From positions 1,074,868-1,138,867 of the forward strand of contig NW_003314277.1 of NCBI RefSeq assembly GCF_000143415.4: a stretch of DNA of 64,000 nt, in the 5' to 3' direction. This DNA is from Selaginella moellendorffii. Its lineage: Eukaryota; Plantae; Lycopodiophyta. Position 1 is the first letter of the stretch, and every line of letters starts with the position of its first letter. The notes under the pieces are model-generated. The model was not told the DNA's origin. It ran no database searches and saw only the letters and a list, made by a program, of their open reading frames with translations. This document shows positions 35,401-58,643 of this stretch, piece after piece. The position numbers were made by a program, and so were the translations under genes.

Positions 35401-36673
35401 GTGCGCTTGCATTTACATAATGCTATTGCCTGTTCTGACTATTGCCAAACTTGTCAATGCTTTTGTAGTCGGCGTTACTCTACACCACGGTCGATGGGCA
35501 TAGACGTATCAGAGTTAGTACACTATCACTTACTTGCACGAACGTTCTGAGCAACCTTTTCAAAGGCGCGGATCTAGATGCACAGTTCACTTATCTTTTG
35601 AAAACTGGTAAGTAATCTGTGTGATTTTCGTTCAAGGTTCTGAAATTGCCTTTGATACAGCTGCTCAAGGCGTGCCTGTCTCCCCTCTTTCGCAAGTTAG
35701 GGAGCAAACCATTGGACAGTGTGTTCAGAGCTTGTTTTCGTATAGAAAGTTTTGCGCAACTGCATCTTCTTCGGGCCAGCTTATCTTGCCCGAATGCCTT
35801 AAGCTGCTACCGCTATATACACTCGGTAAGTTTCGTGTCGTTTGTTTTTTTAACTTTTCACAATGTCGTTTCCTTCTTTACAGCTCTTACAAAGAGCGTG
35901 GGTCTCCGGCAAGATGTTCGTGTTGATGAAAGAGCTTACTGGCTTATGCGAGCTACAAGCATCTCGGCATCCCTCGCGATACCGTTGGTGTATCCCAGAC
36001 TATTTTCCGTCCACAACATACCAAAGGTACTAGTTATCTCTTTGGTACTCTGATTAAAGCGCGTTTTGCATAGCTGGACGAGTCGAGTCTACCACCGACG
36101 CTTCCTCTATCAAGCGAGAACCTGGACCCAGAAGGAATCTTTCTTTTGGAGACCGGTGAGGACGCTTTTCTATACGCAGGGAAGGCTGTCTCCTCTGAGC
36201 TGCTTCATCAACTCTTTGAAGTGCGGTCTGTGAACGAAGTGATTCCCGGACAGGTACTTCATTCCCTCGCTCGTATGACTCGTAATTTTCTTACTCTTGT
36301 TCTCTTTTGCAGTTTTTGTTGCAAGAGTACGATAACGAGCCATCAATTTTGCTGAACAAGATGGTGAACGAGATCCGTCGCCAACGCTGCTCTTACCTGC
36401 GGTATGTTTCGATAAAAAAAGCTCTCACTAGTCTTTCTAACGCGGATGCTTGCTATTCTAGGTTGCATTTGCTGAAGCGGGGAGATCCTTTAGGTGATCA
36501 AACACTCTCATTTTTTTTCTTTTTCGAGGCACTCTTGCTCATTCGGTTTTGTTACAGAGATGATGTTCCACTCCTTCATGATCGAGGACAAGAGCGGGCT
36601 GGGCTCGTCTTATGTGGAGTTCCTTGTCTACGTGCACAGGCAAATCCAGGTAAAAATGCAGTCTGGGAGCTGA
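32452..36673 (+). CDS. SEC24: COPII coat subunit Sec24C/D-like, many short introns
   Basis: Pro/Gln-rich N-terminus, GNCSPR, zinc finger [12 protein letters not shown]...[76 protein letters not shown] at 36671-36673. Confidence 0.96.
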
Positions 36674-37095
36674 GCTTATTAAAAGCGGAAGAAATTCATT
36701 CAATAACATTCCCCATTAGTCATGAATCTAAAAGATTCTCAAGCATAGCATTTGCAAGAATTATGTTTTGGCAAACCCATTTTACTCCAGACGTTGTAAA
36801 ACATTAATGTTTTTTACTACAATGAAAGCACAAATACCCAAAACGTCTGACTTCGCGCTTGACACGGTCGAAGATCTACATCCGTATCCGCGCGGCTTGA
36901 CATTTTACTTTTCAACGTCGAAAAAGTCAGCAAGTTATCCGGAACTATAACACGCTCTCCTGCACTATAGATCCTCCCACTCCATACTCAAGCACATCAA
37001 AGCTCACACTCAAGCTCCTCCAAGTTTCTCTAGCTTTCTCCGATCTCGTTCACAAGTCTGGGATCACATCAAAGCAAGAGGCGTTCTTAAAAAAG

Positions 37096-37323
37096 ATGGC
37101 GAGCAACAAGATGCTGCTGGCGATGCTTGTGGTGGTGCTCCTGGTGGGAGTTGACATTGGAGGAATTGCAAGTGCGAGCACCCAGGGGCGATGCAAGCCG
37201 GGGTGGCACTGGGATGGGAAGAAGTGCGTCTATTGCCAGCCAAACTGGTACTGGTACAACAATTCTTGCCACCGCTGCAAGATGGGCTCGCACTGGACTG
37301 GAAGTTCCTGCAAGAAGAACTGA
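37096..37323 (+). CDS. Secreted Cys/Trp-rich repeat peptide, type A copy 1 (3 repeats, 75 aa)
   Basis: Signal peptide MASNKMLLAMLVVVLLVGVDIGGIASA followed by three C-x3-W-x-W-x4-C units (one W replaced by S). Intact and intronless. Confidence 0.85.
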   Translation: MASNKMLLAMLVVVLLVGVDIGGIASASTQGRCKPGWHWDGKKCVYCQPNWYWYNNSCHRCKMGSHWTGSSCKKN

Positions 37324-37767
37324 AGTTGCCTATCAAGATCCAAGCTTATGTAATATGTCAACGACAATAAATATTGTGGTTGTGCTGTTTCTTGTGATAA
37401 CCTTTTGGTGAATAAAATGTGTGTGCTTTTCTTTCCATGACATCCCATTCTAAGGCTCGGTTTCCTCATCCAGAATCCGCTTGACGAGAGACTTGCTGCC
37501 AATTTCACTTTTAGTTTCTAGCAACTCGAGCAGCAAGATTATCGAAATACCGAAGTCTTGCGCTGCTGAGTTTCATACTCGAGACAAGAGATGAGAGAGA
37601 AATGTGAATCATGCCTCTTAGTTTGGCCACAAGTGGACTTTAAGAAATTACGGTTCGTAAATTTCTTGCAGTTTCTAGCTATTTACTTTTAAAAATATTA
37701 TCATATTTTTTAATGCATTGTCTTTTGATGATTTCACGGGACTTAAATAGAGACTGTTTCATCTGGA

Positions 37768-37870
37768 TTGACCCCGTCAATCAAGCACAAACACGACATG
37801 TCGTGCCGGAGACGCAGTAAAAACCGTGTGCATAGCTACTCAGCCTCAAATCCTCCATATAAATTGGTCC
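37768..37870 (+). promoter_or_regulatory. Type B promoter module: inverted W-box pair, 14-bp palindrome and TATA box
   Basis: TTGACCCCGTCAA (37768-37780), CACGACATGTCGTG (37792-37805) and catataaatt. The module recurs before every tandem B copy (39535, 44671, 46486, 48521). Confidence 0.65.
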
Positions 37871-37964
37871 CACATTGGCAACACCATAACACAGCAAAGC
37901 ATTTAATCAAGAGAAAGAAGAGATACAAGAAAAGCAATCAGTTTGCATTTCTATTGACGATACA

Positions 37965-38280
37965 ATGGCGAGCAAGTCACAGCTGATGCTTCTGGCCACG
38001 TTTGACAATCCTCCTGGTTGGAGTGGACGTTGGTGGAATCGAAAGCGCAGCAGCCCAGCAGAAATGCAAATCTGGCTGGAACTAGGACGGCCACAAGTGC
38101 ATCCAGTGTCCCAAAGGCTGGTACTGGTATAGCAACGATTGCCACCAATGTCTCTCCGGTTGGAAGTGGAGTGGAAGCAAATGCGTGAGTTGCCCGAGCA
38201 GCTGGTACTGGTACAACAACAAGTGCCACCAATGCCAATTTGGCTGGAAATGGAGCAAGGACCATTGCATCAAGAACTGA
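37965..38280 (+). pseudogene. Cys/Trp peptide type B copy 1 (pseudogene)
   Basis: Homologous to 46680-46997. A 2-nt deletion in the signal peptide and TGG>TAG at 38083-38085. Confidence 0.88.
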
Positions 38281-38421
38281 CCAAGTTGGAATCCAATATT
38301 TGATGGATCGTCACAAAATAATTGTCCCATGTCCATTTGGTTATGAAAGTATATGAAAGATGTGAGCTCGAACTCCCGACCCCAGCTTTCTTTCTTTCTA
38401 ACCTTTATTTATCCTGCGGCT

Positions 38422-38670
38422 GCATTCTACGACTGATTTTTACTTTCAGCCAAGATACTCCACGAACACAAAAGAAGGCTTTAGTACAAGAGAAGCTACC
38501 AGAGAAGTGTCTATGTCATCTTTTCGACATTGTTTGAGGTAAACTTCAAGAAAAGTTTACGTGAATTTTCTAGTTCACTTGGTTTCCATCCTTCCCCACA
38601 GGATTGTGTTGTCTCAAATGCGGACCAAATCTGGATCAATCGGTACCCAGTCCAAGCCAAGGCCGCATTG
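38422..38670 (+). pseudogene. Pectin methylesterase exon/intron fragment
   Basis: Matches 50102-50366 (gcattctacgactg, cagccaagatac, tacaagagaagctac, cattgtttgaggtaaactt, aaatctggatc, cagtccaag). Further copies at 45353-45598 and ~47206-47340. Confidence 0.85.
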
Positions 38671-38862
38671 TATCACAGCTTCACATTTGATTTTTTAACG
38701 TAGATATTGTCAATGAGTAGCCCTGAACTAACTTGGAGAAGCTTGAAGTGTTGGATGGGAGGATTTACAGTTCTAGGCTGTGACCACGTCTTATAGGATT
38801 AGCACTCAAAGTTTCTTATCGTTTGCAAGTCGAGACAGAGGCAAGAGGAGAGCTTTAAGAAA

Positions 38863-39136
38863 ATGGCGAGCAACAAGAAGAGCGTGAGGCGGTGCTCCTG
38901 GTGGGAGGCATTGCAAATGCAAGCGCCCTGACGTGGGAATGCAAGTCGGGTTGGCACTGGGATACGATTAGGAAGACGTGCGTCTCTGGTACAACAATTC
39001 CTGCCACCGATGCCCGGAGTACTGGTTCTGGTATACCAGTTCTTGCCACCGTTGCTCTGTTGGCACTGGTATGACATCGGTTGCCACCGATGCGAAAAGG
39101 GGCTGGCGCTGGACTGGAAGGTTCTGTAAGAACTGA
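38863..39136 (+). pseudogene. Cys/Trp peptide type A copy 2 (pseudogene)
   Basis: Starts atggcgagcaacaag and ends tgtaagaactga. Multiple frameshifts and internal deletions. Confidence 0.82.
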
Positions 39137-39697
39137 ATTGCCCATCATTTCCATGCTGAAACGTGTATAAAGCCAATTGTAATAACCTTTTGGTAAATAA
39201 ACTGTGTCGTCCATTCTACGGTAGCGGAAGTCCCATTTCCTCGGCAGGATCGGAAGAGATTTCATCCTGCCTTGCTGCTTGAGTTTCATTTTCTAATATT
39301 TCATAAAGTTTTTTTGGAATGTTTAGAAGCTTGGAGGCCTTTTCTCCACCATATCAATAAGTGCGTTCACTTTTGAAAACATTATCATATTTTTTAATGC
39401 ATATGAGGCAATTCATATAAAATAGTGATTGATCGCAACGAGATAGATAGATAGATAAACATACCGGGATATTTTTGATAATTTCACAAGGAAACTCGAG
39501 GTTGTTCATCTGGATAAAGTCGTACACTTGTTTCTTGACCACGTCAATCAAGCACAAACACGACATATCGTGCCCGAGAAGCAGTAAAAACCGTGTACAT
39601 AGCAGTGTTAGCCTCAAATCCTCCATATAAATTGGCACCATAATACAGCAAAGCAAAGAAGGGATACAAAAAAAAAATTAGTTTACATTTCTAGATC

Positions 39698-39821
39698 AGA
39701 TGGAAGTGGAGTGGAAGCAAATGCGTGAGTTGCCCAAGAAACTGGTACTGGTACAACAAGAAGTGCCACCAATGCCAGTTTGGCTGGAAATGGAGCAAAG
39801 GACCATTGCATCAAGAACTAA
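39698..39821 (+). pseudogene. Cys/Trp peptide type B copy 2 (5'-deleted fragment)
   Basis: Only the last ~2.5 repeats remain (WKWSGSKCVSCPRNWYWYNKKCHQCQFGWKWSK). The B promoter is still present upstream. Confidence 0.82.
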
Positions 39822-39890
39822 CCAAATTGGAGGCACAAAATGAATTGTGATTTTAAATCTGATTTAAATACAAACTTATTGGGAGAAACA

Positions 39891-39924
39891 TGGGGTGAGA
39901 GAGGCTCGAACTCTCTACCTCAGG
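39891..39924 (-). pseudogene. 3' half of tRNA-Met (duplicated fragment)
   Basis: tggggtgagagaggctcgaactctctacctcagg matches 49123-49156. Another copy lies at 47079-47110, with more decayed traces at ~38362-38383 and ~45278-45300. Confidence 0.85.
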
Positions 39925-40578
39925 TAGAATCAAAGGGCTAATGGAGCATTGGTTAAAAAAAGAGGAAGTTATGGTGTGCAATTTAGCGGATGATCATATG
40001 CAAAAATTGACATGTTGTCTTCCAATTCGTCTATAATTTTATGGCCATAATATGCCCATCGGATGGCCATGGCATGTTTCCATTATCACTCCATACACTC
40101 ATTAGCATAACTTTGATTTGTTAACTTAGGGTTGGTAGCTTGTCCTGGTCCTTAATGTTGCTGCCCAAGACAGGATTCAACTGGCATGGTAGATGAGTTT
40201 TTCTGGTAGGAGGTGAAATTTATTTCTTGTTTGTAGATCATTTGTTTTTTTCGGTTGCAGTGTCAAAATTGTTTGGCCTAAAGTATTTCCTAATGGTGTG
40301 TGTGAAACCACCTGATTTATGGCTTTAAATTATCCATTGTTATACTAATTGTGTACTAAATTTGTACAGTCGCAAGGCTTTGGAAATCTAATTAATTTTG
40401 TTACTTGAATTCTCTAGACTAAAACTACTAGTTACCTTGCAACTTACCTTGGAATTTCAAAACCAATGCTGTACAAGTACATGAGGCTTATTGATCCCAA
40501 TTGGAGGCATGTATATAACATGATGCCATCAAGAGAGGTATTGAATATTATCCAAGCTAATATTTCTATGAATCATGT

Positions 40579-41229
40579 TGTCACAAATTGGGGGATTATC
40601 AACTCCTGCTTAGGCTATAGAATTGCAAGATATTGATTTAGTCGACGCCAAATAGGAGCCAAACTAATATTTTAAATGATCGAACATATATTCCAACCAC
40701 TATCCCTACTATACATTTGGAACCCCCCCTCCCTCCCCCTGGAGAACACATGCTTTAGGCTTTCACCCCTAGCCTCCCTTAGTACCAATAGTTAATTTTT
40801 AGGATAAACTTAAAACTTATTATTTATGGAATGGCATTAGATTGCGTATTTGGACACAGGACCAACACTATCGTGTTTAAGACAATCTTTACATTCCGTA
40901 AATATGCCAAATTAGTAAATCAAGGCACATTCCATAAATAATAATGGACTAAACGTTAGGACATGATAGCGAGTGTGTTTGGTAGACATAGTAAGCTATC
41001 ATTTAGCAATATTGAGGGACTAATCTCAATATACAGAGGTTCTTGTCACTAGCCAGTGCAAGTTATAACGAGACGGGAAATCCTTACCAAGCACAAAAGG
41101 GGCTACTAAAGGGATCCAACTGTACTGACCTTTTGCTGTTATGGCAGTGAAGAAAGAGTGTCTATAAGGACTAGCTAATAAGTATCTTTCGACACCCGAA
41201 ATCACGTTTGTGACACTCTCCCCCCTTAG
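40579..41229 (-). mobile_element. 3' LTR (637 bp) with adjacent polypurine tract, from a third LTR family
   Basis: Perfect 9-bp terminal inverted repeat TGTCACAAA (40579) ... TTTGTGACA (41215). ctctccccccttag at 41216-41229 reads as the PPT AAGGGGGGAGAG directly before the LTR on the minus strand. Confidence 0.75.
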
Positions 41230-41366
41230 GGAAGATCAATGTCCTCATTGATGCATACCTGAGTTTAGCAAATTGTCAAGGAAATAACTCTGAAAGTTAA
41301 TAGAAAGCATATTATGTAGGAAACACATTGACTTAAATGAGTGATGGAACTACCTCTCCTCTACAT

Positions 41367-42560
41367 TGTAAGAAACTAAATTTTCTATTTTATTTTAGTC
41401 ACTTAACCACATCTTTGACCATTTGGAGGAGTCTTGCTCACAACTTCTATAAGTCATATTCTTGACTTGGGACATACTAGCACCATAAATGGCATTTATG
41501 CCACTTAGCCTTTACATTTGGTCCAAATGCTCCACATGTTTAATCCCATGATCAACACTCAAAGGTACTACTAACATATCAACCTGTTACACTAAGGTCA
41601 TGTTCATTCACCCTTATCACATTAATAGTCCAAGACCATCTACATCACAGTCCCATCTCTCAAAAATTAAGTTATTCGCCCATGAGTGGTCATCCCTTGA
41701 CCACACTTTAACCCTTAGAATGCTTGGAAACATGGGGAACACCCTTCCTCAATATCCCTTTTTTAGTCCCTACCAAGTCCTTCTTTATTCACGGCCATAT
41801 TTGCCAACACTGCCATTGGGTCAAGGCCCAAAGGCTCAGACTACTAAGTCGCATTGTCCTTTAGGACTTCCTCACCATGTGATTGTATTTAATCACTATA
41901 TTAGAGGATTATTCCTCTTTCTTTCCACAGTCTGGGACTTTGGGATAACATTTCGAAACACTATAACTTTATGCAAGCCTCGTGTACTTTCCCCACCTTC
42001 TGCCTTTAAATGCCCTAGCCATGTGGTTAGAGCGAGGTTCTGAGTATCTAAGTAGGTAGTGCCACCCACACTTGGATTGGGAGCATTGACCATTTAATCT
42101 CCGAAAGGAGCTAAAACTAGCTCTTAAACACTTTACCAAGCTACCCTACTTTTCTATTTGTATCACCCATTATATGGGTATAGCCTTCTTTGGTCACACT
42201 AGCATTTCTTGGCCAAATTGGCACCACTAGAATCTTCCCTTTACTATACTTTTGGAGCTCACCAAACCCTCTAGGGTTTAGGAAATAAACACTTTGGGCT
42301 TTCACCCTTGGACTACTCAAACTCGGATTTGAATTTGAATTCGGACTCCTTCTCAAACTCGGACTTGGACTCCATCTCAAACTCGGACTTGGACTCCATC
42401 TCAAACTCCATCTCATACACTTCCACATGTCATGTGTTAATCCTCTTGTGTCCCTTTTCTAAAAACTCACTTACTATTTGCTTTATGCTCGTTCCTTATA
42501 GAAGTTTCACTCCTACTCTCAACTATTTAAGTCAAAGCTTTTAATCTAAACATGTTACAT
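41367..42560 (-). mobile_element. LTR-derived remnant of the same family as 3692-4552; ends approximate
   Basis: 41655-42315 aligns with 3700-4410 and is followed by a ctcgga-type hexamer array. Possible tgtaa (41367) / ttaca (42559) termini; no target-site duplication confirmed. Confidence 0.6.
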
Positions 42561-42574
42561 TTGTTTGGCTTCTA

Positions 42575-43394
42575 CTACTCAAGGTGTGCCTATCTCCCCT
42601 CTTTCTCAAGTTAGAAAGCAAACCATTGGATAGTGTGTTCAAAGCTTGTTTTCATATAGAAAGTTTTGCGCAAATTGCATCTTCTTTGGGCCAGCTTATC
42701 TTGCCCGAATGCCTTAAGCTGCTACCGCTATATACACTCAGTAAGTTTCATGTTGTTATTTTTTTTAACTTTTCACAATCTCGTTTCCTTCTTTACAGCT
42801 CTTACAAAGAGCGTGGGTCTCCGGCAAGATGCTCGTGTTGATGAAAGGGCTTACTGGCTTATGCGAGCTACAAGTATCTCGGCATCCCTCGGGATACCGT
42901 TGGTGTATCCCAGAAAATTTTCCGTCCACAACATACCAAAGGTACTAGTTATCTCTTTGGTACTCTGATTAAGGTGCGTTTTGCATAGCTGGACGAGTTG
43001 AGTCTACCAACTCGTAATTTCTTACTCTTGTTCTCTTTTGCAGTTTTTGTTGCAAGAGTACGATAACGAGCCATCAATTTTGCTGAACAAGATGGTGAAC
43101 GAGATCCGTCGCCAAAGCTGCTCTTACCTGCGGTATGTTTCGATAAAAAAAACTCTCACTAGTCTTTCTAATGCGGATGCTTGCTATTCTAGGTTGCATT
43201 TGCTGAAGCGGGTAGGTGATCAAACACACTCATTTTTTTCTTTTTCGAGGCACTCTTGCTCATTCGGTTTTGTTACAGAGATGATGTTCCACTCCTTCAT
43301 AATCGAGGACAAGAGCGGGCTGGGCTCGTCTTATGTGGAGTTCCTTGTCTACGTGCACAGGCAAATCCAGGTGAAAATGCAGCCTGGGAGCTGA
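42575..43394 (+). pseudogene. Duplicated 3' part of Sec24 (truncated, internally deleted)
   Basis: Near-identical to 35661-36673 but lacks ~36095-36277 and all upstream exons. It begins the segmental duplication 35661-39925 / 42575-47110. Confidence 0.92.
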
Positions 43395-43816
43395 GGTCAC
43401 TAAAAGCGGAAGAAATTCATTCAATAACATTCTCCATTAGTCATGAATCTAAATGATTCTCAAGCATAGTATTTGCAAGAATTATGTTTTGGCAAACCCA
43501 TTTTACTCCAGACGTTGTAAAACATTAATGTTTTTTACTACAATGAAAGCACAAATATCCAAAACGTCTGACTTTGCGCCTGACACGGTCGAAGGGTTAC
43601 ATCTGTATCCGCACGGCTTCACATTTTACTTTTCAACGTCGAAAAAGTCAGCGAGTCATCTGGAACTATAACACGCTCTCCTGCACTATAAATCCTCCCA
43701 CCCCATACTCAAGCACATCAAAGCTCACACTCAAGCTTCTCCAAGTTTCTCTAACTTTCTCCGATCTCGTTCACAAGTCTGGGATCACATCAAAGCAAGA
43801 GGCGTTCTTAAAAAAG

Positions 43817-44170
43817 ATGGCGAGCAACAAGATGCTGCTGGCGATGCTTGTGGTGGTGCTCCTGGTGGGAGTTGACATTGGAGGAATTGCAAGTGCGAGC
43901 GCCCAGGGGCGATGCAAGCCGGGGTGGCACTGGGATGGGAAGAAGTGCGTCTCTTGCCTGCCAAGCTGGTACTGGTACAACAATTCTTGCCACCGATGCC
44001 CGCACAACTGGTACTGGTACTCGGGTTCTTGCCACCGCTGCCCGATTAACTGGTACTGGTACTCGGGTTCTTGCCACCGCTGCCCGATCAACTGGTACTG
44101 GTATGGCAACTCTTGCCACCACTGCCAGATGGGCTGGCGCTGGACCGGAAGTTTCTGCAAGAAGAACTGA
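43817..44170 (+). CDS. Secreted Cys/Trp-rich repeat peptide, type A copy 3 (6 repeats, 117 aa)
   Basis: ATG at 43817. Signal peptide, then CKPGWHWDGKKCVS CLPSWYWYNNSCHR CPHNWYWYSGSCHR CPINWYWYSGSCHR CPINWYWYGNSCHH CQMGWRWTGSFCKKN. TATAAAT at 43687. Confidence 0.88.
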   Translation: MASNKMLLAMLVVVLLVGVDIGGIASASAQGRCKPGWHWDGKKCVSCLPSWYWYNNSCHRCPHNWYWYSGSCHRCPINWYWYSGSCHRCPINWYWYGNSCHHCQMGWRWTGSFCKKN

Positions 44171-44878
44171 AGTTGCCCATCAAGATCCAAGCTCATGTAA
44201 TATGTCAACGACAATAAATATTGTGGTTGTGCTGTTTCTTGTGATAACCTTTTGGTGAATAAAATGTGTGTGCTTTTCTTTCCATGACATCCCATTCTAA
44301 GGCTCGGTTTCCTCATCCAGAATCTGCTTGACGAGAGACTTGCTGCCAGTTTCACTTTTAGTTTCTAGCAACTCGAGCAGCAAGATTATCGAAATACCGA
44401 AGTCTTGCACTGCTGAGTTTCATACTCTGAGGAAACAAGAGATGAGAGAGAAATGTGAATTAAAGTCGTAGTTTAGCCAGTTTAGTTTAGTTTACTTTTT
44501 CTTAGTTCTTGCTTCTGAGTGGACTTTAAATACCCATCAAGAAATTACGGTTCGTACAAATGTTATCATATTTTTTAATGCATATGTATCAGTTAGCAAC
44601 TCAGGTAAAACAAAAATCCATTATCTTTTGATGATTTCACGGGACTTAAATAGAGACTATTTCATTTGGATTGACCCCGTCAATCAAGCACAAACACGAC
44701 ATGTCGTGCCGGAGACGCGGTAAAAACCGTGTGCATAGCTGTCTTACTTGGACTCAGCCTCAAATCCTCCATATAAATTGGTCCCACATTGGCAACACCA
44801 TAACCCAGCAAAGCATTTAATCAAGAGAAAGAAGAGATACAAGAAAAGCAATCAGTTTGCATTTCTATTGACGATACA

Positions 44879-45196
44879 ATGGCGAGCAAGTCCCAGCTGA
44901 TGCTTCTGGCCATGTTTGTGACAATTCTCCTGGTTGGAGTGGACGTTGGTGGAATCCCAAGCGCAGCAGCCCAGCAGAAATGCAAATCTGGCTGGAACTA
45001 GGACGGCCACAAGTGCATCCAGTGTCCCAAAGGGTGGTACTGGTATAGCAACGATTGCCACCAATGTCTCTACGGTTGGAAGTGGAGTGGAAACAAATGC
45101 GTGAGTTGCCCGAGCAACTGGTACTGGTACAACAACAAGTGCCACCAATGCCAATTTGGCTGGAAATGGAGCAAGGACCACTGCATCAAGACCTGA
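44879..45196 (+). pseudogene. Cys/Trp peptide type B copy 3 (single nonsense codon)
   Basis: Full 318-nt frame with TAG at 44999-45001, the same lesion as in B copy 1. Confidence 0.88.
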
Positions 45197-45787
45197 CCAA
45201 GTTGGAATCCAATATTTAATGGATCGTCACAAAATAATTGTCCCATGTCCATTTCGTTATGAAAGTATATGAAAGATGTGAGCTCGAACTCCCGACCCCA
45301 GCTTTCTTTCTTTCTAACCTTTATTTAACTTATCCTGCGTGAATAATTAGCTGCATTCTACGACTGATTTTTACTTACAGCCAAGATACTCTACGAACAC
45401 AAAGGAAGGCTTCAGTACAAGAGAAGCTACCAGAGAAGTGTCTATGTCATCTTTTAGACATTGTTTGAGGTAAACTTCAAGAAACGTTTACGTGAATTTT
45501 CTAGTTGGTTTCCATCCTTCCCCACAGGATTGTGTTGTCTCAAACGCGAGGACCAAATCTGGATCAATCCGTACCCAGTCCAAGCCAAGGCCGCATTGTA
45601 TCACAGCTTCACATTTTACTTTCTAACGCAGATATTGTCAATGAGTAGCCCTGAACTAAACGTGCTAATCCTGTAAGACGTGGTCACCGCCTAGAACTGT
45701 AAATCCTCCCATCCAACACTTCAAGCTTCAAGTTTCTCAAAGTTTCTTATCGTTTGCAAGTCGAGACAAGAGGAGAGTTTTAAGAAA

Positions 45788-46056
45788 CTGGCGAGCAACA
45801 AGAAGAGCGTGAGGCGGTGCTCCTGGTGGGAGTTGACATTGGAGGCATTGCAAATGCAAGCGCCTAGAAGTGGGAATGCAAGTCGGGGTGGCACTGGGAT
45901 ACGAAGTGCGTCTCTGGTACAACAATTCCTGGATGCCAGTACTGGTTCTGGAATACCAGTTCTTGCCACCGCTGCTCTGTTGGTACTGGTATGGCATCGG
46001 TTGCCACAGATGCGAAAAGGGGCAGGCGCTGGACTGGAAGGTTCTATAAGGACTGA
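45788..46056 (+). pseudogene. Cys/Trp peptide type A copy 4 (pseudogene)
   Basis: Start codon changed ATG>CTG (ctggcgagcaacaag), with frameshifts. Paralogous to 38863-39136. Confidence 0.82.
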
Positions 46057-46679
46057 ATTGCCCATCAAGATCCATGCTGAAACTTGTATAATAGCCAATT
46101 GTAATAACTTTTTGGTAAATAATATGTGTCGTCTAGCGAAGTCCAATTTCCTCGGCAACAAAATCAGAAGAGATTTCATCCTGCCTTGCTGCTTGAGTTT
46201 CATTTTCTAATATTTCATAAAAAAATTCTGAATGTTTAGAAGCTTGAGGCCTTTTCTCCACCACATACATGTCACTCAATAAGTGCGTTCACTTTTAAAA
46301 ACATTACCATATTTTTTAATGCATATGAACCAGTTAGCAACTCAATTTATATTCATATAAAATAGTGATTGATCGCAATTAGATAGATAGATAGATAGAC
46401 ATTTTTATAGTCACCGGGATATTTTTGATAATTTCACAACAAAACTCGAGGTTGTTTCATTTGAATAAAGTCGTACACTTGTTTATTGACCCCGTCAATG
46501 AAGCACAAACACGACATATCGTGCCCGAGAAGCAGTAAAAACCGTGTACATAGCAGTGTTACTTAGACTCAGCCTCAAATCCTCCATATAAATTGGCACT
46601 ACTCTGGCACCATAACACAGCAAAGCAAACAAGGGATACAAGAAAAGCAATTAGTTTACATTTCTAGATTGACGATACA

Positions 46680-46997
46680 ATGGCGAGCAAGTCCCAGCTG
46701 ATGCTTCTGGCCATGTTTGTGACAATCCTCCTGGTTGGAGTGGACGTTGGTGGAATCGAAGGCGCAGCAGCCCAGCGGCAATGCAAATCTGGATGGAACT
46801 GGGACGGTCATAAGTGCATCCAGTGTCCCAAAGGCTGGTACTGGTATAGCAGCGATTGCCACCGATGCCTCTCCGGATGGAAGTGGAGTGGAAGCAAATG
46901 CGTGAGTTGCCCGAGCAACTGGTACTGGTACAACAACAAGTGCCACCAATGCCAGTTTGGCTGGAAATGGAGCAAGGGCCACTGCATCAAGAACTAA
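46680..46997 (+). CDS. Secreted Cys/Trp-rich repeat peptide, type B copy 4 (5 repeats, 105 aa)
   Basis: Signal peptide ending AAA|Q. The mature 74 aa has 10 Cys, 10 Trp, 11 K/R and 2 D. Confidence 0.9.
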   Translation: MASKSQLMLLAMFVTILLVGVDVGGIEGAAAQRQCKSGWNWDGHKCIQCPKGWYWYSSDCHRCLSGWKWSGSKCVSCPSNWYWYNNKCHQCQFGWKWSKGHCIKN

Positions 46998-47510
46998 CCA
47001 AATTGGAGGCACAAAATGAATTGTCCTATGATTTTAAATCTGATTTAAATAAAATCGCAAACTTATTGGGAGAAAAAATGGGGTGAGAGAGGTTCGAACT
47101 CTCGACCTCACACGAAGTAAAGCTTAAATCATAAAAACTTTGTTTTGAAAGTGCTATGAAAAGTTAAAAAAAGAGGAAGTGGCGTAGATTGTGTGCTCGG
47201 GAAGGATTCCACGAGCGTATTGCTTCCAGCCAAGATGCCCTCTATGATCGCAACAGAAGGCATTACTACAAGAGAGATTCATCTTTGGACAAGGCCGGCC
47301 ATTGTTTGAGGTAATTCAAGTCATTTGATTTCCATCCTTCTGTCACCTCATTGTTTCGCAGTTTCACATAACATTTGACTTTTTAACGTTGAGAAAGTCA
47401 GCGAGTCATCCGGAACTTATAAGACGCGGTCAATCCCGCACTCAAGCACATCAAAGTTCACACTCAAGCTTCTGCAAGTTTCTTTAGGCAAGTCTAAGAA
47501 AGTTCTAAAG

Positions 47511-47814
47511 ATGGCGAGCAACAAGATGCTGCTGGCGATGTTTGGTGCTCCTGGTGGGAGTTGACATTGGAGGAATTGCAAGCGCGAGCGCCCAGGGGCG
47601 ATGCAAGCACTGGGATGGGAAGACGTACGTCTCTTGCCCGCCCCGCTGGTACTGGTACAACAATTTTTGCCAGCGATATCGATGCCCGCACAATTGGTAC
47701 TGGTACTCGGGTTCTTGCCACCGCTGCCCGACCAACTGGTACTGGTATGGGAACTCTTGCCACCGCTGCCAGATGGGCTGGCGCTGGACTGGAAGTTTCT
47801 GCAAGAAGAATTGA
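47511..47814 (+). pseudogene. Cys/Trp peptide type A copy 5 (frameshift in the signal peptide)
   Basis: atgtttggtgctc versus atgcttgtggtggtgctc (5-nt deletion). The 304-nt span is not a multiple of 3, although the downstream repeats stay open. Confidence 0.8.
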
Positions 47815-48125
47815 AGTTACCCATCGAGATCCAAGCTCATATAAGATGTCAACGCCAATGATCATTGTAACCTTTTGGTGAATAAAATGTGTGTGCTTTT
47901 CTTTCCATGACATTGCATTCTAAAGCTCATGCAGAGTCCACTTGACAAGACACTTGCTGCTGAAGCATACAAAGTCTATGGAAAGGCTGGAATTTTTCCT
48001 GATTTAGGCATTCTCCCCAACAAGCAATTATCTCTTTTGGCATGTTGGCATGTAATATAAATATTTGGCTCTTAGGAAAGTTAGGCATCTCCACACTTCT
48101 ATTATTTGCATTACAAATCAAGTGT

Positions 48126-48130
<5 letters not shown>

Positions 48131-48162
<32 letters not shown>
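48131..48162. repeat. (CT)n microsatellite
   Basis: Direct read. Confidence 0.95.
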
Positions 48163-48165
<3 letters not shown>

Positions 48166-48723
48166 CTCATCCAGTGCCATCCCTTACCCACTTCTTTCTT
48201 GAGATTAAAGAGTGGAATTTCTTTTTTTTTTTTGCCGTTTTTCTATGTTCTTTTGGCAGGTAACAAAAGGTAGAAAAAGTGTGCACCAGCTGCCAATTTC
48301 ACTTTTAGTTTCTAGCAACTTGAGTAGCAAGATTACCGAATTGCACTGCAGAGTTCCATACTCTGAGATTTCATTCAGGAGACAAGAGATGAGAGAGAAA
48401 CGTAGATTAGTTTCTAGCTATTTACCTTTAAAAACATTATCATATTTTTTAATGCTTAACTCGTAATTTTTGATGATTTCACAGGACTTAAATAGGAATA
48501 ATGAGACTGTTTCATTTGGATTGACCCCGTCAATCAAGCACAAACACGACATGTCGTGCCGGAGACGCAGTAAAAACCGTGTGCATAGCTGTCTTACTTG
48601 GACTCAGCCTCAAATCCTCCATATAAATTGGTACACATTGGCAGAACCCAGCAAAGCAGTTAATCAAGAGAAAGAAGAGATACAAGAAAAGCGATTAGTT
48701 TACATTTCTAGATTGACGATACA

Positions 48724-49041
48724 ATGGCGAGCAAGTCCCAGCTGATGCTTCTGGCCATGTTTGTGACAATCCTCCTGGTTGGAGTGGACGTCGGTGGGAT
48801 TGCAAACGCAGCAGCCCAGCAACGATGCAAATCTGGATGGAACTGGGACGGCCACAAGTGCATTCAGTGTCCCAAAGGTTGGTACTGGTATAGCAACGAT
48901 TGCCACCGATGCCTCTCCGGATGGAAGTGGAATGGAAGCAAATGCGTGAGTTGCCCGAGCAACTGGTACTGGTACAACAACAAGTGCCACCAATGCCAGT
49001 TTGGCTGGAAATGGAGCAAGGGCCACTGCATCAAGAACTAA
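48724..49041 (+). CDS. Secreted Cys/Trp-rich repeat peptide, type B copy 5 (5 repeats, 105 aa)
   Basis: Intact ORF, nearly identical to 46680-46997, with a complete B promoter module. Confidence 0.9.
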   Translation: MASKSQLMLLAMFVTILLVGVDVGGIANAAAQQRCKSGWNWDGHKCIQCPKGWYWYSNDCHRCLSGWKWNGSKCVSCPSNWYWYNNKCHQCQFGWKWSKGHCIKN

Positions 49042-49122
49042 CCAAATTGGAGGCACAAAATGAATTGTCCTATGATTTTAAATCTGATTTAAATAAAATC
49101 GCAAACTTATTGGGAGAAAAAA

Positions 49123-49207
49123 TGGGGTGAGAGAGGCTCGAACTCTCGACCTCAGGATAACCTAGAAGCTATGAGACCTACGCGCTGACCAACTGCGCCA
49201 CCACCCC
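49123..49207 (-). tRNA. Elongator tRNA-Met(CAT) with an 11-nt intron (49159-49169)
   Basis: GGGGTGGTGGCGCAGTTGGTCAGCGCGTAGGTCTCATA[GCTTCTAGGTT]ATCCTGAGGTCGAGAGTTCGAGCCTCTCTCACCCCA, the canonical plant intron-containing tRNA-Met, followed by a T-run terminator. Confidence 0.97.
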
Positions 49208-49406
49208 ATAACAAAATTAATAAACCATTCTTTTAGTTTAACCTTTCGCAGCACCAAAAGGTTATTTTCGTTAATAAATTTATATGGTTTATTGTTTAAC
49301 TAATATGGTTCATTGTTAAATTTATCAAAACTCACATAATAATAAATTAGCTCCAGGCCTCTATAAAACTTATCAACTTCCTGACACAAATATTCAGGCA
49401 GCCACA

Positions 49407-50749
49407 ATGTTGAAGCCTTACCTTCTCTTTCTCCTCTTTGGTTTTCTGATTTTGTCTGTTCATTATCGGGGATGCCTAGGCCGCCGTGAGGATGATGATG
49501 ACGATGATGACAACCATGACGACCGTGACAATGATGGTGGTGACGATGACGACACTGAACTTCCACCCCGCGAAGCCCTTTCCCGTGCAAATTCTGATAA
49601 AGTCAAACTTTACGTCGGCCCCGACGAGGAGTACAAGACGATCACAGAGGCAATCAATGCTGTTCCCCTCCAAAACAAGCAGCGGTATATCATCAACGTC
49701 GCAGCAGGAGTTTATCGGTATGTTAGTGGTGAATGTGAGAAACCAGCCATTCTTTTGTTTTGTTTGGGCTGTGCAGTGAAAAGATCATAATCCCTGCAAC
49801 AAAAGACTTCATCACACTTGTCGGTAACCCTGACGCCAAGTTTTCCACGGTAATTGTGTTCAATGGGAACACCAACAATTCCGTCAAAACGTTCAACACC
49901 TCCACATTTGCAGTTGAGGCTAATTTCTTTGTAGCTCAGTACATTACTTTCAAGGTAAAAAAACAAAACTCGAATCCAAGCTAACAGCATATGCAATACT
50001 GACTTATTGTTGTTTTTATGATTTAGAACGATGCTCCGTTTGCTTACTCCGGAGCTGTGGGAGGCCAAGCCGTGGCCCTTCGCGTCTCGGGTGAATACGC
50101 GGCATTCTACGACTGCTTTATTACTTCCAGCCAAGATACCCTCTACGATCAGAAAGGAAGGCATTACTACAAGAGAAGCTACATTCAGGGAAATGTCGAT
50201 TTCATCTTTGGACAAGGCCGGGCATTGTTTGAGGTAAACTTACAAGAAAGTTTTACCTTTTCTTCTTACTTGGTTTTCATCGTTCCCACAGGACTGTCTC
50301 ATCATTTCAAACGCGAGGAGCAAATCTGGATCGATCACTGCTCAGTCCAAGTTCAATGCCACATTGGACTCGGGCTATTCGATTTACAACAGCTACATTG
50401 GAGGGACGGGCCTGGTGCATCTGGGTCGTCCGTGGAAGGAATATGCTTCGGTAGTATTTGTCAACAATTACCTGGACGAAGTCGTCAACCCGACTGGATG
50501 GGACCAATGGGCTTACAACCCAGCCGCGGGGTAAGGACAGTTTCCTCACCACATAGAAAGAGAAAAGGTGACGGGCCTAATCTCTCTGGATTCTGCAGGA
50601 CTGCGTTCTTTGCCGAACATGGGAACTTTGGTCCCGGCGCGGACAGCACCAGGCGTGTTAATTGGATCAAGCAGCTGACCTCAGATCAAGCTTATGAGTA
50701 CAGCGATATAAAGTTTATCGATGGGCAGGACTGGCTCTACTTGGAGTGA
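49407..50749 (+). CDS. Pectin methylesterase (no PMEI pro-domain), 5 exons
   Basis: Signal peptide, YKTITEAINAVP, AGVYREKI, QAVALRVSGE, QDTLY, GNVDFIFG, HLGRPWKEYA, FAEHGNFGPGA, FIDGQDWL. Confidence 0.95.
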
Positions 50750-50873
50750 TGAAGATTCTTTTCACTCAAGTTTTAACTAACCACTAACCCAAGTTCCTCA
50801 AATTTGCGATGTCATCTAACAAAGAAAAAGAAGAAAAATTCCCATTGAAACTAAAGCCTTTTGACAAATCTCT

Positions 50874-52447
50874 TTAAAGTGCTGTTGGAAGTATCGGACC
50901 ATTAGCATACAAAGCCACGAGCAGCGCAGACATGGCGGCCGAATTGTAAGTGGTGGCCTCGTTTTGCATTGTGTTGTCTCGCAAGTCGGAGTAGCTATCG
51001 TTTTGAAAGGGCCCTCCGACCAGAGCTCCGGTGGCGACGTGTGGATTTGGAGCAGAAGCGTGGAGCCACCGGAATCCATCTTTGCACCCAGTCGCTGCGT
51101 CCAGAGGTATGGATGCTTCTCTATGATGGAGCTGCTGTGGAAAGTTTGCGCCATATCCAACGAGGTAGCTCTTGGACATGGGGTTCTCTCCCAAGATGTA
51201 ATCGGCCTGTAAGAGAACTTTTTTAGCCTGAGACCACAAAAGTTCTAAGTTCTAGTTCCAACTTTGTAACTACTTTTAAGTCTCGAATTCTATCTTTGAA
51301 GAACTCTCAAAGTTTTTAGTACCTGTGAAGCCGCAAACGCCCGAAGATCTTTGGCCGCGAAGCTGTTCCCGGAACACCGGAACTGCTTAACTCCCGAGCT
51401 CGAAAGATAGTCCGCGTACACGACCGCTAAGAAAGCCGAGCCAACGGCGTGCTGGACAGCGTTCCTTTGGCTCACCCACAGCAATCCACCGGTACTCCTG
51501 TTCGTGCTAGCAGTGGGAGACTGTGGAAGAAACGCACAGACCAGGTGTTCGGCAGTCTTGCCATACTTCACCAGCGAGCTTCTCACCATTACATCACTCT
51601 CCTCCGGCTCAAACAAATAGTGTCGCGATAGCAGCACCTAGAAGAATGGAAGTGTGAGAAGAGTGTGGAAGAATCGAAGGAAAACAACACAAGAAAAGAA
51701 ATGGAAGTCAAAAAAACACTAGAAAGTTTGAGAAAGTGTGGAAAAACTTGCCTGAATGCCCGGTTTCTTGTCATCCCAGCTAAACCAAGCAGGAGCTTTC
51801 TCCCATCCGGCGCTTAGCTGTGCCAGCTTTCCAGTCGCGTAGGCGAGGTACTTTGAGTCCTTGGTCGCGTAAAACATCCACGAAGCGGCCCAGAGGAGCT
51901 CGTCCTCGAAGCCCGTAGAGTTATAGTACAGCTGATCGGATGGAAAGCTGGCGGTGTAAGATCCACGATGCTTGTCTGCAAAGGCGAAGAGCTGCGTTGC
52001 GTGTGAGAGGAGAGTTTGTGCGTACGAGGGGTCATCGTTTCGAAACACGAGCGAGGCTGCTGCCATGGCCGCCGACGTCTCGGCCGCCACCTCGGTCCCT
52101 GGGTGTGATGGATCCAGCTTGAAAGACGGGCGAGCAGTGTCCATCTTCTCGGCTCTCTCCCAGCATGCGTGATCCAGCCTTGGGCTTCCTACCTGGCTAT
52201 CACGAAAGTACAAAAGTTAGAAAGAGGATAGCTTGATCATAGAAGACGAACATACTACGAGAACTAGCGAAAAACTGAGTTCTTACACTTGTACCAGACG
52301 AAAAGATCATTCCAAGGAACATCCACAATAAAAACGTGAAAGACAAAATCGAATCTTCTCAGGAATTCGAAAGCATCGGTGGAAGGAAAAAACACCTCAA
52401 ATTACACGCGAAAAGGAGAAAACATATCTAAGTTACACAGAAAGCTG

Positions 52448-52497
<50 letters not shown>

Positions 52498-53520
52498 ACA
52501 TATATCTGAAGAACCATCTATCAACGACAAGAAATTACACTCACATGTAGCCGAGAATACCATCTATCTCTAGCTCAATTTCACGCGACTAACATAGAGA
52601 AAGATTAGCTCTAGCAAAAGAGAATGCAATCCAAAGAACCATCATTCTAGTTCTAGGTATTAGCAAAAGAAAGAACAAGAGAAACATACACAAGGAAACC
52701 ATAGCAGCTAGAGGAAAGAGAGGAGAAAAAAAAACGTGTACCTGGAAGTAGAGCTCGTTCTCTGATGCGTGGGCCTTGATGAGATAATCGGTGATCCATT
52801 TGAGCGATCCAGTGACCGAGTGGAGTTGCTGCGTGGCGGTGTACTCCTTCCTATACTCGAGAATGCTCCACGAAAGAATGGTGGCCGTGAACGCCATTGG
52901 AAAGCCAAACTTGATGTAATCCCCAGCGTCATACATTCCGCCGCTTAAATCCACGTGTGCATCGCTACCGTCGGATAGCGCCGAATCTCCTCGCCATTCT
53001 ATGGGATTGTCTGGGGGTAGCTTTCCCGCTGCGGAAGATCCAAACCATTAGAACGAACGAGGAAACGCAAAATCCAGGGGGAGGGGAAGGGACCGACAGC
53101 GACCACGAGGGACCCAATGCGGAGTTCTCGCAGCCAACGTGATCGATTTCGGGGAATTGCAAGGGAATCGATCGTCGACGAGGAAAGAAAAATCTACTCA
53201 CATTTCTGGATGTCGAAGAACTGGAGAGAGATCTTGAGTGGCTCCGCGTACTTGGCGTAGACAGTGCCTCCGGAGTCCTGGGATGGAGGATACGAGACGC
53301 TGGCGGCTGGAGGCTGGGCATTTGCTGGAGGGATCTTCCCTCCAGAGATTGGGGACGAGGAAGAAGAGGAAGAGGAGGAGGAGCTCCCGCCTTTGTGCCT
53401 GTGCTTGTGCTGCGCAACGAACACTGTGACAACGGATAGAACAGCCACCAATGCTACAATGCCGGCTAAAACCCACCATTGCCATCCCCCTTTCTCTGTG
53501 TGGCGAAGCCTCCTCACCAT
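50874..53520 (-). CDS. Glycoside hydrolase family 9 endo-1,4-beta-glucanase with an N-terminal membrane anchor
   Basis: LQFFDIQK, DLSGGMYDAGDYIKFGFPMAF, DHACWERAE, PGTEVAAE, EDELLWAA, SWDDK, DYILGENP, HHREASIP, GALVGGP, QNEATTYN. Confidence 0.96.
52449..52500. repeat. Compound (CT)n(CA)n microsatellite in a GH9 intron
   Basis: Direct read. Confidence 0.95.
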
Positions 53521-54660
53521 AGCTGTGAGCTGTGAGAGGAGGAGATCTCGATCAATGCCAGGAGCAAGGAGGAGAGGAGGACAACAGAAAAGAGAAGAAA
53601 AACTATTCTTTCATCTCTCTCTCACGCAGAGGAAGGAGATCTTGGATTTCTTTCTCCAGCTTCTTCTCTCTCTCTCTTCTTTTCTTTTTCTAAACTGCTT
53701 TAAATGTATTGATCAGATGGATCTCTTAACTCAATCGCATTCAATGCAGAACGGACGGGTAACAGGCTGCTCTGGTACCTGGCCGTAGAATATAAAAGGT
53801 CACATTTACATTTACGTACAAACATTTACATTGATCGTCAAGAAAATCAGTCTTTTTTATCTGACGTGATCGCCTGTGAGAGAATTGTATGCCAAACAGG
53901 CTATGCGTTGGAAGCAAGGAGAGTGTTTGAAACCATGCCCCGAGTGATTGACTAATTCGATAATCACTGCGGTCGCCCAGAACTTTAGAGAGGCGAGGAG
54001 CTCCTTTGACAGCCTACTAGGGAAGGTTCTTCTGGCAGGATCGCAAGATCAATCTTGCCAAGGGCCTGTTTGATTCGATGGAGGAGCGAAGCACAACGTG
54101 CTGCCTATGCATTTCGAAACGGCCAAGATCTTCCATCTGAAAGATTCCAAGATTCATGCTAAACGCGTTAGCCGAGCTTTACAGCCGTCTCCAGAAAACA
54201 GCCTCGCATCTTCGAGCTTGAGACGAGTAATCCTCCACCATACGAAATTGAGTACGTGCCGCCAAGCATAATGGACAATGCATGACATCTTTTGGGGTGG
54301 ACAGGCACAAACCGCATCCAATACGAAGTTCTTGAGTTCAAATCTCCTCGCCGCCCACCAGTTCATGGTCCATGCAACAAGAAATTACGAAGAAATTGCA
54401 AACCTTTGAGTCAAAATAGAGGGCTAGATAACATCTCCAAACCGATCAAACCAAGAAAAGCCACCTCTCAAAGACTCTAATTGCAGGCTGGATTGCTTCC
54501 TCAACACGGCTAATGGGAATGCTACAATCGAAGCTGCAAGAGCTTTTATTCCTGCAAATGCCACAGTTTTCCTTCAAACTCCAGCATTGCTGGTCTATTA
54601 CAGCAAATCTTTATTCCTGCAAATGCCGTGGTGAAGTCATATTACAGCAGTGTTGTGTGA

Positions 54661-54960
54661 TCACATCCTAATGCAGCGGCTTCCACCACCACTCCAGCTC
54701 AAACCAGGAGGGCAGCGATGGCAGCCATTTCTATACCAGTACCAGCTGCTTGGGCAACTCACGCATTTGCTTCCACTCCACTTCCATCCGGAGAGGCATT
54801 GGTGGCAACCGTTGCCATACCAGTACCAGTCTTTCGGGCACCGGATACACTTCTCACCATCCCAGTTCCATCCGGATTTGCATCGCTGCTGGGCGTCCAC
54901 TCCCACTAGGAGGAGTGTCACAAACATCGCCAAGAGTATCAGCTGGGACTTGCTCGCCAT
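54661..54960 (-). CDS. Secreted Cys/Trp-rich repeat peptide, divergent inverted B-like copy (5 repeats, 99 aa)
   Basis: MASKSQLILLAMFVTLLLVGVDA|QQRCKSGWNWDGEKCIRCPKDWYWYGNGC... CTATAAAT lies upstream at ~55033-55040 on the minus strand. Confidence 0.85.
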   Translation of the reverse strand: MASKSQLILLAMFVTLLLVGVDAQQRCKSGWNWDGEKCIRCPKDWYWYGNGCHQCLSGWKWSGSKCVSCPSSWYWYRNGCHRCPPGLSWSGGGSRCIRM

Positions 54961-57900: not shown

Positions 57901-58643
57901 CCACTAAACCAACATCACCCATGTCATACCACATAGCACACATATTTTATCTAAGCCTGTGTAACTTAATCTTGGGGACAGTCCAAATGTTAACTAAATA
58001 TCCCTGTAAACATTAGGTTAATATAAGAATACAGTTAATATTCAGTCATGTAAAATATGGGTATTATATGATAAGCATGACATGGGCATTAGATAGGTAT
58101 ATTCATTTTCCTTCAATTTGACATTATCTATGCTCAAAACCGGAAAAGAGCATTTTGGGAGTGGGAGGGTAGTGAGAGGGACAAAGTTGAAATGGAACAT
58201 GAGTCTATAACTATTGTAGTCCAAATACTTGAGGTCGTTGATGAGGAATTTGATGAACTTAGGGAGGTATATGTTCTATCATTCCTAGACATATGTTGCT
58301 ATAGCTATAGTAACGGTTTTCATGTCCATTTGTCTTCTTCTTTGTCTACACTTCTAAAAAAGGTCACAAAGCACATTTCTTTGCAATTTTTTCCTTGTCT
58401 CCTCTTTTGGTAATTGTGTCAAGCCAAGTTGCTAGCAAAACAATCAACTGGTACCAAATATTTGAGATCATTGCTTGAGATGAGGGGTTCTTGTTATTGA
58501 CGACTTGGTGCAATGAACCTTTCAGATCCCTACAAAAGTACATCTCCTTAAGATATAAAAGAGCTCATGGAGATGGTGTAATATGAATGGTTAAGTTAAT
58601 CAAAATGTAGGTTCTCATTATATCTTCATTTCTATAAGTCTAT

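Follow-up and report, generated by a model that had tools for sequence, protein, structure and literature searches.

Transcribed genes for tryptophan- and cysteine-rich repeat peptides in Selaginella moellendorffii: a plant family, apparently undescribed, built from a known hairpin module

Small cysteine-rich hairpins are stacked into rods in proteins of the growth-factor-receptor and tumor necrosis factor receptor (TNFR) type. The A1 module of TNFR contains a single disulfide, and the disulfides of MST1 form a ladder (PMC11603874, PMC8024323, PMC10602792). In the type 2 repeats of thyroglobulin each CxxC cysteine bonds to the neighboring repeat (PMC8748809), and LOX-1 carries a Cys144-Cys155 disulfide on its beta0-beta1 ribbon (PMC2194713). 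Hevein uses Trp21, Trp23, and Tyr30 for chitin (PMC4695807), and the choline- and glucan-binding repeats are aromatic 14-amino-acid (aa) hairpins with sites between repeats (PMC4929436). Plant cysteine-rich peptide classes have been defined almost wholly from seed plants. Here we describe a highly expressed lycophyte family of different architecture, encoded in 64,000 nucleotides (nt) of Selaginella moellendorffii DNA (contig NW_003314277.1, positions 1,074,868 to 1,138,867, forward strand; the whole stretch is called the window below). Its members are small peptides made of a predicted signal peptide and tandem 14-residue units of the form C-x3-W-x-W-x4-C-x2. This is a real, transcribed, and selected gene family. 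Its unit is the C-x10-C hairpin of growth-factor-receptor/TNFR-type cysteine-rich rods, a backbone that is old and widespread; the new part is the double Trp on a small, cationic, stand-alone plant peptide.

The gene cluster and its transcripts

A six-frame scan of the window found 36 matches to the strict motif C-x3-W-x-W-x4-C, all within 37192-54882, against a mean of 0.017 matches (maximum, 1) in 60 locally shuffled windows. BLAST and translation resolved 11 paralogs, 5 intact and 6 broken, the same count as in the original prediction, which had been made from the sequence alone. They fall into three types (A, B, and C), as follows.

37096..37323, +: type A gene, intact; 75 aa, predicted signal peptide and 3 units
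37965..38280, +: type B pseudogene; signal peptide frameshifted, unit 1 with a stop; sense depth of 1.4 and 0.7
38863..39130, +: type A-like pseudogene, degenerate; RNA depth 0 to 0.06
39699..39922, +: type B copy, 3' fragment only (self-BLAST, tblastn)
43687..43712, +: TATAAAT box (43687) and transcription start (43712) of the 43817 gene (sequence and molecule ends)
43817..44170, +: type A gene, intact; 117 aa, predicted signal peptide and 6 units
44879..45196, +: type B pseudogene; unit 1 with a stop at its second Trp; sense depth about 1 at most
45789..46075, +: type A-like pseudogene, degenerate; RNA depth 0
46680..46997, +: type B gene, intact; 105 aa, predicted signal peptide and 5 units
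47511..47814, +: type A pseudogene; signal peptide frameshifted, unit 1 with a deletion
48724..49041, +: type B gene, intact; 105 aa, 5 units
54661..54960, -: type C gene, intact; 99 aa, shorter predicted signal peptide and 5 units, 2-aa insertion in the last
35661..46669, no strand: segmental duplication, 35661-39696 / 42575-46669 (self-BLAST, tblastn, Pfam)

The cluster has grown by tandem and segmental duplication. The segmental event doubled the A-B block together with a Sec24-like gene's 3' end, and fragments of pectinesterase (38419-38670, 45350-45598, and 47219-47379 by tblastn and Pfam) were copied along with the A-B block. Gene death is frequent, with 6/11 copies broken, and the repeat number shifts in 42-nt steps.

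Transcription was followed in three raw stranded RNA runs of one study (X14, X15, and X16; about 12% of each read) and in five contig sets. A GH9 gene on the minus strand fixed the mate convention, with the opposite mate strand as the control. Because the paralogs are 92 to 96% alike and the runs differ from the window, reads are not uniquely assignable within a type. The type A and B genes are transcribed. Sense depth on the 37096 gene (3' bin 37134-37767) was 7.6 in X14 and 87.7 in X15, and that on the 43817 gene was 4.7 and 25.2, respectively. Pooled on 43817, the type A reads of X16 had depths of 431 and 254 (GH9, 1 to 2.5 in the same run), which corresponds by a rough estimate to some 350 reads per kilobase per million for the pooled type A. 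For type B, depths in X14, X15, and X16 were 9.3, 0.5, and 2.1 on the 46680 gene and 57.5, 3.8, and 15.5 on the 48724 gene; type A prevails in two samples and type B in the third. Sense depth on the broken copies was about 0 to 1.4, except on 47511, where the X16 reads placed there have at least 6 differences and join to 43984 and hence derive from another A variant. The type C gene (54960) had a depth of <1 and is represented by one 157-nt contig with 3 differences in X11.

Both A genes have molecule ends piled up 105 nt upstream of the ATG, at 36991 (18 ends) and at 43712 and 43713 (59 and 28 ends), the A-gene start sites being 25 nt after the start of a TATA box. The only joints seen inside the genes were in-frame skips or jumps between paralogs, in agreement with the initial description of the genes as intronless. 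The skips were of 126 nt (leaving 3 units) and 84 nt (leaving 4 units; 20 reads with 14 different starts). Together with contigs that have a different 5' untranslated region or an extra unit, they show that further alleles or paralogs exist outside the window.

Two public proteins touch the family, both from S. moellendorffii, and neither is a correct model. RefSeq XP_024531936.1 consists of residues 1 to 52 of the 48724 gene (100% identity) joined to a pectinesterase starting at 49407, and EFJ36804.1 begins like type C for about 35 residues and then continues with unrelated sequence. A peptide-pectinesterase fusion was rejected, as no read joint was found and pectinesterase depth was 0 in 7/8 runs; in the eighth (X1) it was 7.6, only in the bin holding a tRNA end. 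The pectinesterase (in the region 48724-50749) has its own ATG and hydrophobic leader at 49407 and an Asp-rich stretch. A homolog search with the mature alignment yielded no short protein (0 of 162 candidates); an alignment search of longer proteins gave 4 matches in 3,282, and with the full type B protein there was 1 match among 2 candidates. Since these collections contain predicted proteins only, mis-modeling of this kind may hide relatives in other lycophytes, and the family need not be restricted to its lineage.

Around the peptide genes, the Sec24-like gene (32452-36828) stops some 160 nt upstream of where type A transcription starts, and its 3' exons were those copied with the peptide block (42575-43212). 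A tRNA gene on the minus strand (49122-49208) has a CAT anticodon and a short insertion and is likely an intron-bearing tRNA-Met. Farther out, an AT-rich island at 5000-9800 (24 to 39% GC) holds two minus-strand open reading frames, one for a mannose-binding B-lectin (7878-8177; Pfam E value, 5.8e-8) and an unexplained one of 171 aa (8211-8726). A Ty3/gypsy-type retrotransposon gag-protease frame lies at 344-2506 on the minus strand, with repeats resembling long terminal repeats nearby. The region 55000-64000 is AT-rich and contains a 314-nt tandem duplication at 58643-59264, with no Pfam match in the long frames scanned.

The repeat unit, its conservation, and its predicted fold

The intact genes encode 24 units. 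The original prediction had assigned C-x3-W-x-W-x4-C to every unit, and this holds for 22/24; the first Trp is absent from unit 3 of the 37096 gene (Ser) and from unit 5 of the 54960 gene (Leu, plus the 2-aa insertion). In an alignment of the 23 gap-free units, i.e., all but that last type C unit, C1, W7, and C12 are unchanged in 23/23 and W5 in 22/23. The units are of two types: G-W-[N/K/H/R]-W, and W-Y-W-Y with C-H-[R/Q/H] after it. WYWY often has Asn flanks, and half of the units are without it; Y-x-Y is present in 11/24 units and His directly after C12 in 11/23, and the hairpin tips differ between units. Along each peptide the gaps between cysteines run 10, 2, 10, and so on, with 2 to 5 CxxC per peptide and a lone Cys at both ends in 5/5.

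The N-terminal hydrophobic stretch (best 11-residue Kyte-Doolittle mean, 3.05 to 3.59) is followed by A-x-A, A-S-T, or V-D-A and then by Gln, before which cleavage probably falls; the products are predicted to be secreted. The mature peptides are 46 to 88 aa long, with a net charge of +7 to +9 and an isoelectric point of about 9.1 to 9.4. The 37096 type A peptide has 46 aa, 6 Cys, and 5 Trp (net +7), and the 43817 type A peptide has 88 aa, 12 Cys, 12 Trp, and 8 Tyr (net +9). For type B, the computed values (74 aa, 10 Cys, 10 Trp, net +9, start QQR or QRQ) reproduce the make-up first reported. The calculated 280-nm absorbance of the products of 43817-44170 and 48724-49041 is unusually high, about 7 per mg/ml; a UV-screening side role of these two peptides is conceivable, though unsupported.

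The ratio of nonsynonymous to synonymous change (dN/dS) was computed on the mature region, without a significance test. The two intact type B genes, 46680 and 48724, differ by 4 synonymous changes over 30.7 sites and 2 nonsynonymous changes over 182.3 sites (dN/dS, 0.08), and intact type B compared with type C gives 0.18 and 0.26. By this measure the type B mature sequences are under purifying selection. For the type A pair the ratio is 1.1, but it comes from five changes, too small a number to interpret. Pairs of units differ at 37% of nonsynonymous sites, yet C1, W7, and C12 stay fixed. Of 29 coding differences checked in the reads, many of which are cross-mapped paralogs, 14 are silent, none falls at a Cys, and one falls at a Trp, i.e., W5 to Gly in unit 1 (45/47 reads in X15 and 407/885 in X16). 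These read differences mark W7 and the cysteines as the fixed core and W5 as losable in terminal units. Not every unit strictly needs WxW, although the original prediction gave it for all: an abundant type A transcript carries Gly in place of the first Trp in unit 1. The original prediction had named missing transcripts or peptides and a dN/dS near 1 at the Cys and Trp codons as arguments against function. Sense RNA lies at high depth on the type A and B genes, the broken copies being nearly silent, and the type B comparisons stay within 0.08 to 0.26 with Cys and W7 held.

The beta-hairpin proposed for each unit at the outset is also what AlphaFold2 predicts. The type B model (48724; single sequence) shows five hairpins with a pLDDT (predicted local distance difference test score) of 80.9 and a predicted template modeling score (pTM) of 0.44, and the type A model (43817; 8-row alignment) shows six, with a pLDDT of 92.2 and a pTM of 0.63; neither contains a helix. 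In the type B model, strands 22-25 (WYWY) and 28-31 are arranged around a two-residue turn. By hairpin geometry, W5 would share one face with W7 and Y6 would share the other with Y8, and W7, opposite C12, likely packs on the disulfide. From the solved LOX-1 and thyroglobulin precedents, both of exactly this spacing, and the lone terminal Cys we infer C1-C12 pairing within each unit, which upholds by analogy the disulfide stapling that had been suggested; only such pairing explains the lone Cys at both ends in all five peptides, and each CxxC would therefore link two adjacent disulfides.

Fold searches of the PDB gave no significant match (best Foldseek E value, 0.045; best VIA match, Z 3.7 with a root mean square deviation of 3.2 over 48 residues), a result that shows neither a new nor a different fold. 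The top matches were all disulfide-rich rods, i.e., MST1, the TNFR family, the cysteine-rich domains of class C G-protein-coupled receptors (GPCRs), ELAPOR1, thyroglobulin, and R-spondin; the EGFR family and Eph, from the same rod class, were also among the matches. A viral fold search returned one match, to an uncharacterized giant-virus protein (E value, 0.001; template modeling [TM] score, 0.45).

Possible functions

We favor, at slightly less than an even chance, a cationic multivalent binder of microbial wall glycans or membranes acting in apoplastic defense. The secreted products would be chains of 3 to 6 disulfide-stapled beta-hairpins in which the Selaginella-specific W5 and the Tyr pair provide exposed aromatic rings. 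These rings would stack on sugars or choline and, with the net charge of +7 to +9, give an avidity that rises with unit number; the target surface would most likely be fungal. This reading is suggested by the cationic charge, exposed aromatics, variable unit number, and birth-and-death evolution, and by the analogy with hevein and the choline/glucan repeats. Cysteine richness, tandem duplication with 6/11 copies dead, and sample-dependent A/B expression likewise fit defense by analogy.

A number of points weigh against defense. The structure matches all fall short of significance, 0/5 peptides contain a hevein core motif or a gamma-core, the matches to choline-binding proteins are very weak, and a CBM14 lead in the ESM Atlas scored 0.77 to 0.80. 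Known rods of this fold mostly bind proteins or polymerize rather than bind glycans. The abundant A transcript has Gly for W5 in unit 1 and the 3-unit gene is without W5 in its last unit, and type B is strongly conserved, unlike the hypervariability of many defense peptides.

In a bolder and more doubtful version of the defense reading, the family would be a new plant defense peptide class, a length-tunable, disulfide-stapled "tryptophan ladder": a TNFR-like hairpin remade to sense or kill through multivalent contact with fungal wall glycans or choline-bearing surfaces, the A and B types being used in different tissues or conditions. If so, it would be a plant equivalent of the solenoids that bind choline or glucan in bacteria, and engineering would gain a minimal repeat scaffold of natural origin. 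Binding to fungal surfaces, if true, would provide a new antifungal scaffold and mean that an early vascular plant lineage built defense peptides from a receptor-type module. Even without a defense function, a stackable 14-residue unit in 3 to 6 copies is an easily made test case for a minimal cysteine-rich hairpin rod.

It is rather unlikely that the rods are instead a component of the host cell wall, a tissue-specific structural additive that binds the plant's own polymers (pectin by its cationic face, cellulose or mannan by its aromatic one) or that self-assembles or cross-links via Y-W-Y. In extensins, Y-x-Y has a role in isodityrosine formation, and the presence of Y-x-Y in 11/24 units, the very high, sample-dependent expression, and the strong type B conservation would all suit a wall role. 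So would the pectinesterase and GH9 glucanase neighbors (Pfam) and the best fold match, algal MST1, which polymerizes via its cysteine-rich rod (PMC11015965). Ser-Pro repeats, however, are absent from the five peptides, the neighboring pectinesterase is silent where the peptides are expressed, its fragments look like duplication passengers, and wall structural genes less often show such rapid birth and death. We consider it unlikely, too, that the peptides use the Trp face and the tips of their hairpins to bind a protein, either inhibiting an enzyme of a microbe or herbivore or serving as a receptor ligand. TNFR-, furin-like, and C-type-lectin hairpins bind in this way, the structural relatives found are all protein-protein interaction modules, Trp150 of LOX-1, which corresponds to W7, is at a dimer interface (PMC2194713), and the tips vary between units; nevertheless, near-identical units in 3 to 6 copies and variable number are better matched to a polymer ligand of repetitive structure than to a single site on a protein, and no inhibitor family is among the Pfam matches of the five peptides.

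Metal binding at the CxxC junctions had been raised in the original prediction as an alternative; chelation of Zn, Cu, or Cd by these junctions, often C-H-R-C, now looks very improbable. The number of CxxC (2 to 5 per peptide), the His after C12 in 11/23 units, and one weak match to Nup153 zinc fingers (E value, 0.15) speak for metal binding. The predicted signal peptide, on the other hand, implies an oxidizing route, the 6-unit form has an odd number of CxxC (5), and a lone Cys stands at each end of all five peptides; C1-C12 pairing alone leaves no Cys unused, and the corresponding CxxC cysteines of thyroglobulin are disulfide-bonded to neighboring repeats (PMC8748809). Most improbable of all is a burpitide-type precursor, with WYWY cores cut out and cyclized by a BURP-domain enzyme as for cyclopeptide alkaloids, although Selaginella kraussiana makes burpitides, split precursors bear repeated aromatic cores ending in Tyr (PMC11253845), and WYWY here is often Asn-flanked. 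No BURP match was found in 75 of the 108 frames of at least 75 aa in 32.4-60.5 kb (the rest overlap peptide genes, and short exons may escape), half of the units have no WYWY, and the invariant Cys and confidently predicted fold point to a folded product.

Comparison with known families

The original prediction held that the cysteine spacing fits none of the standard plant cysteine-rich peptide motifs, and 0/5 peptides matched any motif tested. Defensins, thionins, lipid transfer proteins, snakins, and alpha-hairpinins are recognized by motifs such as CxC, CxxxC, and CC, and hevein is recognized by a cystine knot with an adjacent CC and an S-x-W-x-W-C chitin core. CC, CxC, CxxxC, hevein core, and gamma-core were each found in 0/5 peptides, no hevein-like Pfam family appeared at E values up to 10, and no helix is predicted; membership in the defensin, thionin, lipid transfer protein, snakin, or alpha-hairpinin classes was thus not found. 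With hevein-like and other plant defense peptides the family shares predicted secretion, small size, cationic charge, an even Cys number, a W-x-W strand, and clustered genes, but it forms an open hairpin chain of variable length as opposed to a knotted fixed core. The choline/glucan-binding repeats (CW_binding_1; LytA, CbpF, and Pce) are likewise tandem aromatic-rich 14-aa beta-hairpins, a possible functional analogue only, and differ in their period of about 20 aa, lack of disulfides, other aromatic register, and bacterial origin; the choline-binding-protein fold matches had E values of 0.73 to 1.5 and TM scores of 0.12 to 0.17, and the peptide period is 14 aa.

LOX-1 carries the exact strict motif (CPQDWIWHGENC). 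The N-terminal beta0-beta1 hairpin of long-form C-type lectin-like domains (LOX-1, CLEC12A) matches C-x3-W-x-W-x4-C exactly, but there it is a single copy on a lectin domain. The whole domain of about 120 aa is absent here: the genes stop after the last unit, and the PDB matches cover the hairpin only. For this likeness (E values, 0.009 to 0.4), convergence is as likely as kinship.

A profile search of 1.84 billion representatives gave 157 matches at E values up to 0.001. Among the 150 matches listed, these were cysteine arrays of a generic kind; most lie in large proteins, and their perfect 14-period runs reach 30 units. We tallied 624 C-x10-C-x2-C units from 125 of the 157 proteins, excluding the two Selaginella records. 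Although the search favored Trp, only 177 of these units have W7, 18 have W5, and 1 has both, compared with 22/23 units having both in the peptides. P0025 is among the few other signal-plus-repeat proteins, and it is without WxW. The metagenome arrays P0003, P0125, P0010, and P0023 resemble the peptides in their perfect 14-residue period, and P0003 and P0125 have the CHRC linker and an aromatic, cationic make-up; such arrays differ in being mostly large multidomain proteins with no common signal peptide, and the likeness need not reflect homology or transfer. The closest in composition, P0003, is a long array of CHRC...YYNN-type units from a Bdellovibrionales genome, encoded after a gene with a pilin N-methylation motif, a position that hints by analogy that such rods serve surface binding. 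In a Bdellovibrionales metagenome-assembled genome (L001, 3132-7211), pilin-type genes are followed by one for a 728-aa protein with a long array of 14-residue cysteine units that are cationic and Tyr/His-rich; it has no Pfam match at E values up to 0.1 and is a candidate pilus adhesin. Horizontal transfer from bacteria was considered because of P0003; the similarity is confined to low-complexity repeat sequence and decides neither for nor against it. Pattern scans of metagenome and viral contigs gave 240 and 205 matches, none of which was confirmed, and the ESM Atlas returned leads of <0.9 only. Literature searches found no prior description; catalogues such as PMC13503966 and PMC3149072 might list the genes, and subscription journals lie mostly outside the literature covered. 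The plant peptide family is apparently undescribed and built from a known module.

That module is not without precedent, contrary to what the original prediction implied; it is the minimal hairpin of growth-factor-receptor/TNFR-like rods, and 14-residue arrays of it occur in many proteins. A Pfam scan of the five peptides found nothing above gathering cutoffs, with ELAPOR1 (PF23091) at 17 to 20 bits against a cutoff of 33.2. The strict A1 module of TNFR, of consensus C-x2-G-x-[Y/F]-x-x4-9-C, is matched by 2/24 units. The C-x10-C predicted hairpin and the CxxC junctions of the broader module are present in the peptides, which share with it the C-x10-C-x2 period, Gly or Asn at position 4, an aromatic residue at positions 5 to 7, and one predicted hairpin per unit. 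Members of the module likened to the peptides are the thyroglobulin type 2 repeats, which pair unit for unit with them (CPEGSYSQDEECIPC), the MST1 rod, ELAPOR1, the ephrin-receptor-like family PF07699, and the NCD3G domain of class C GPCRs. In all of these the modules sit within large receptors or filaments, whereas in Selaginella the units make up the whole mature protein, Trp-doubled and cationic.

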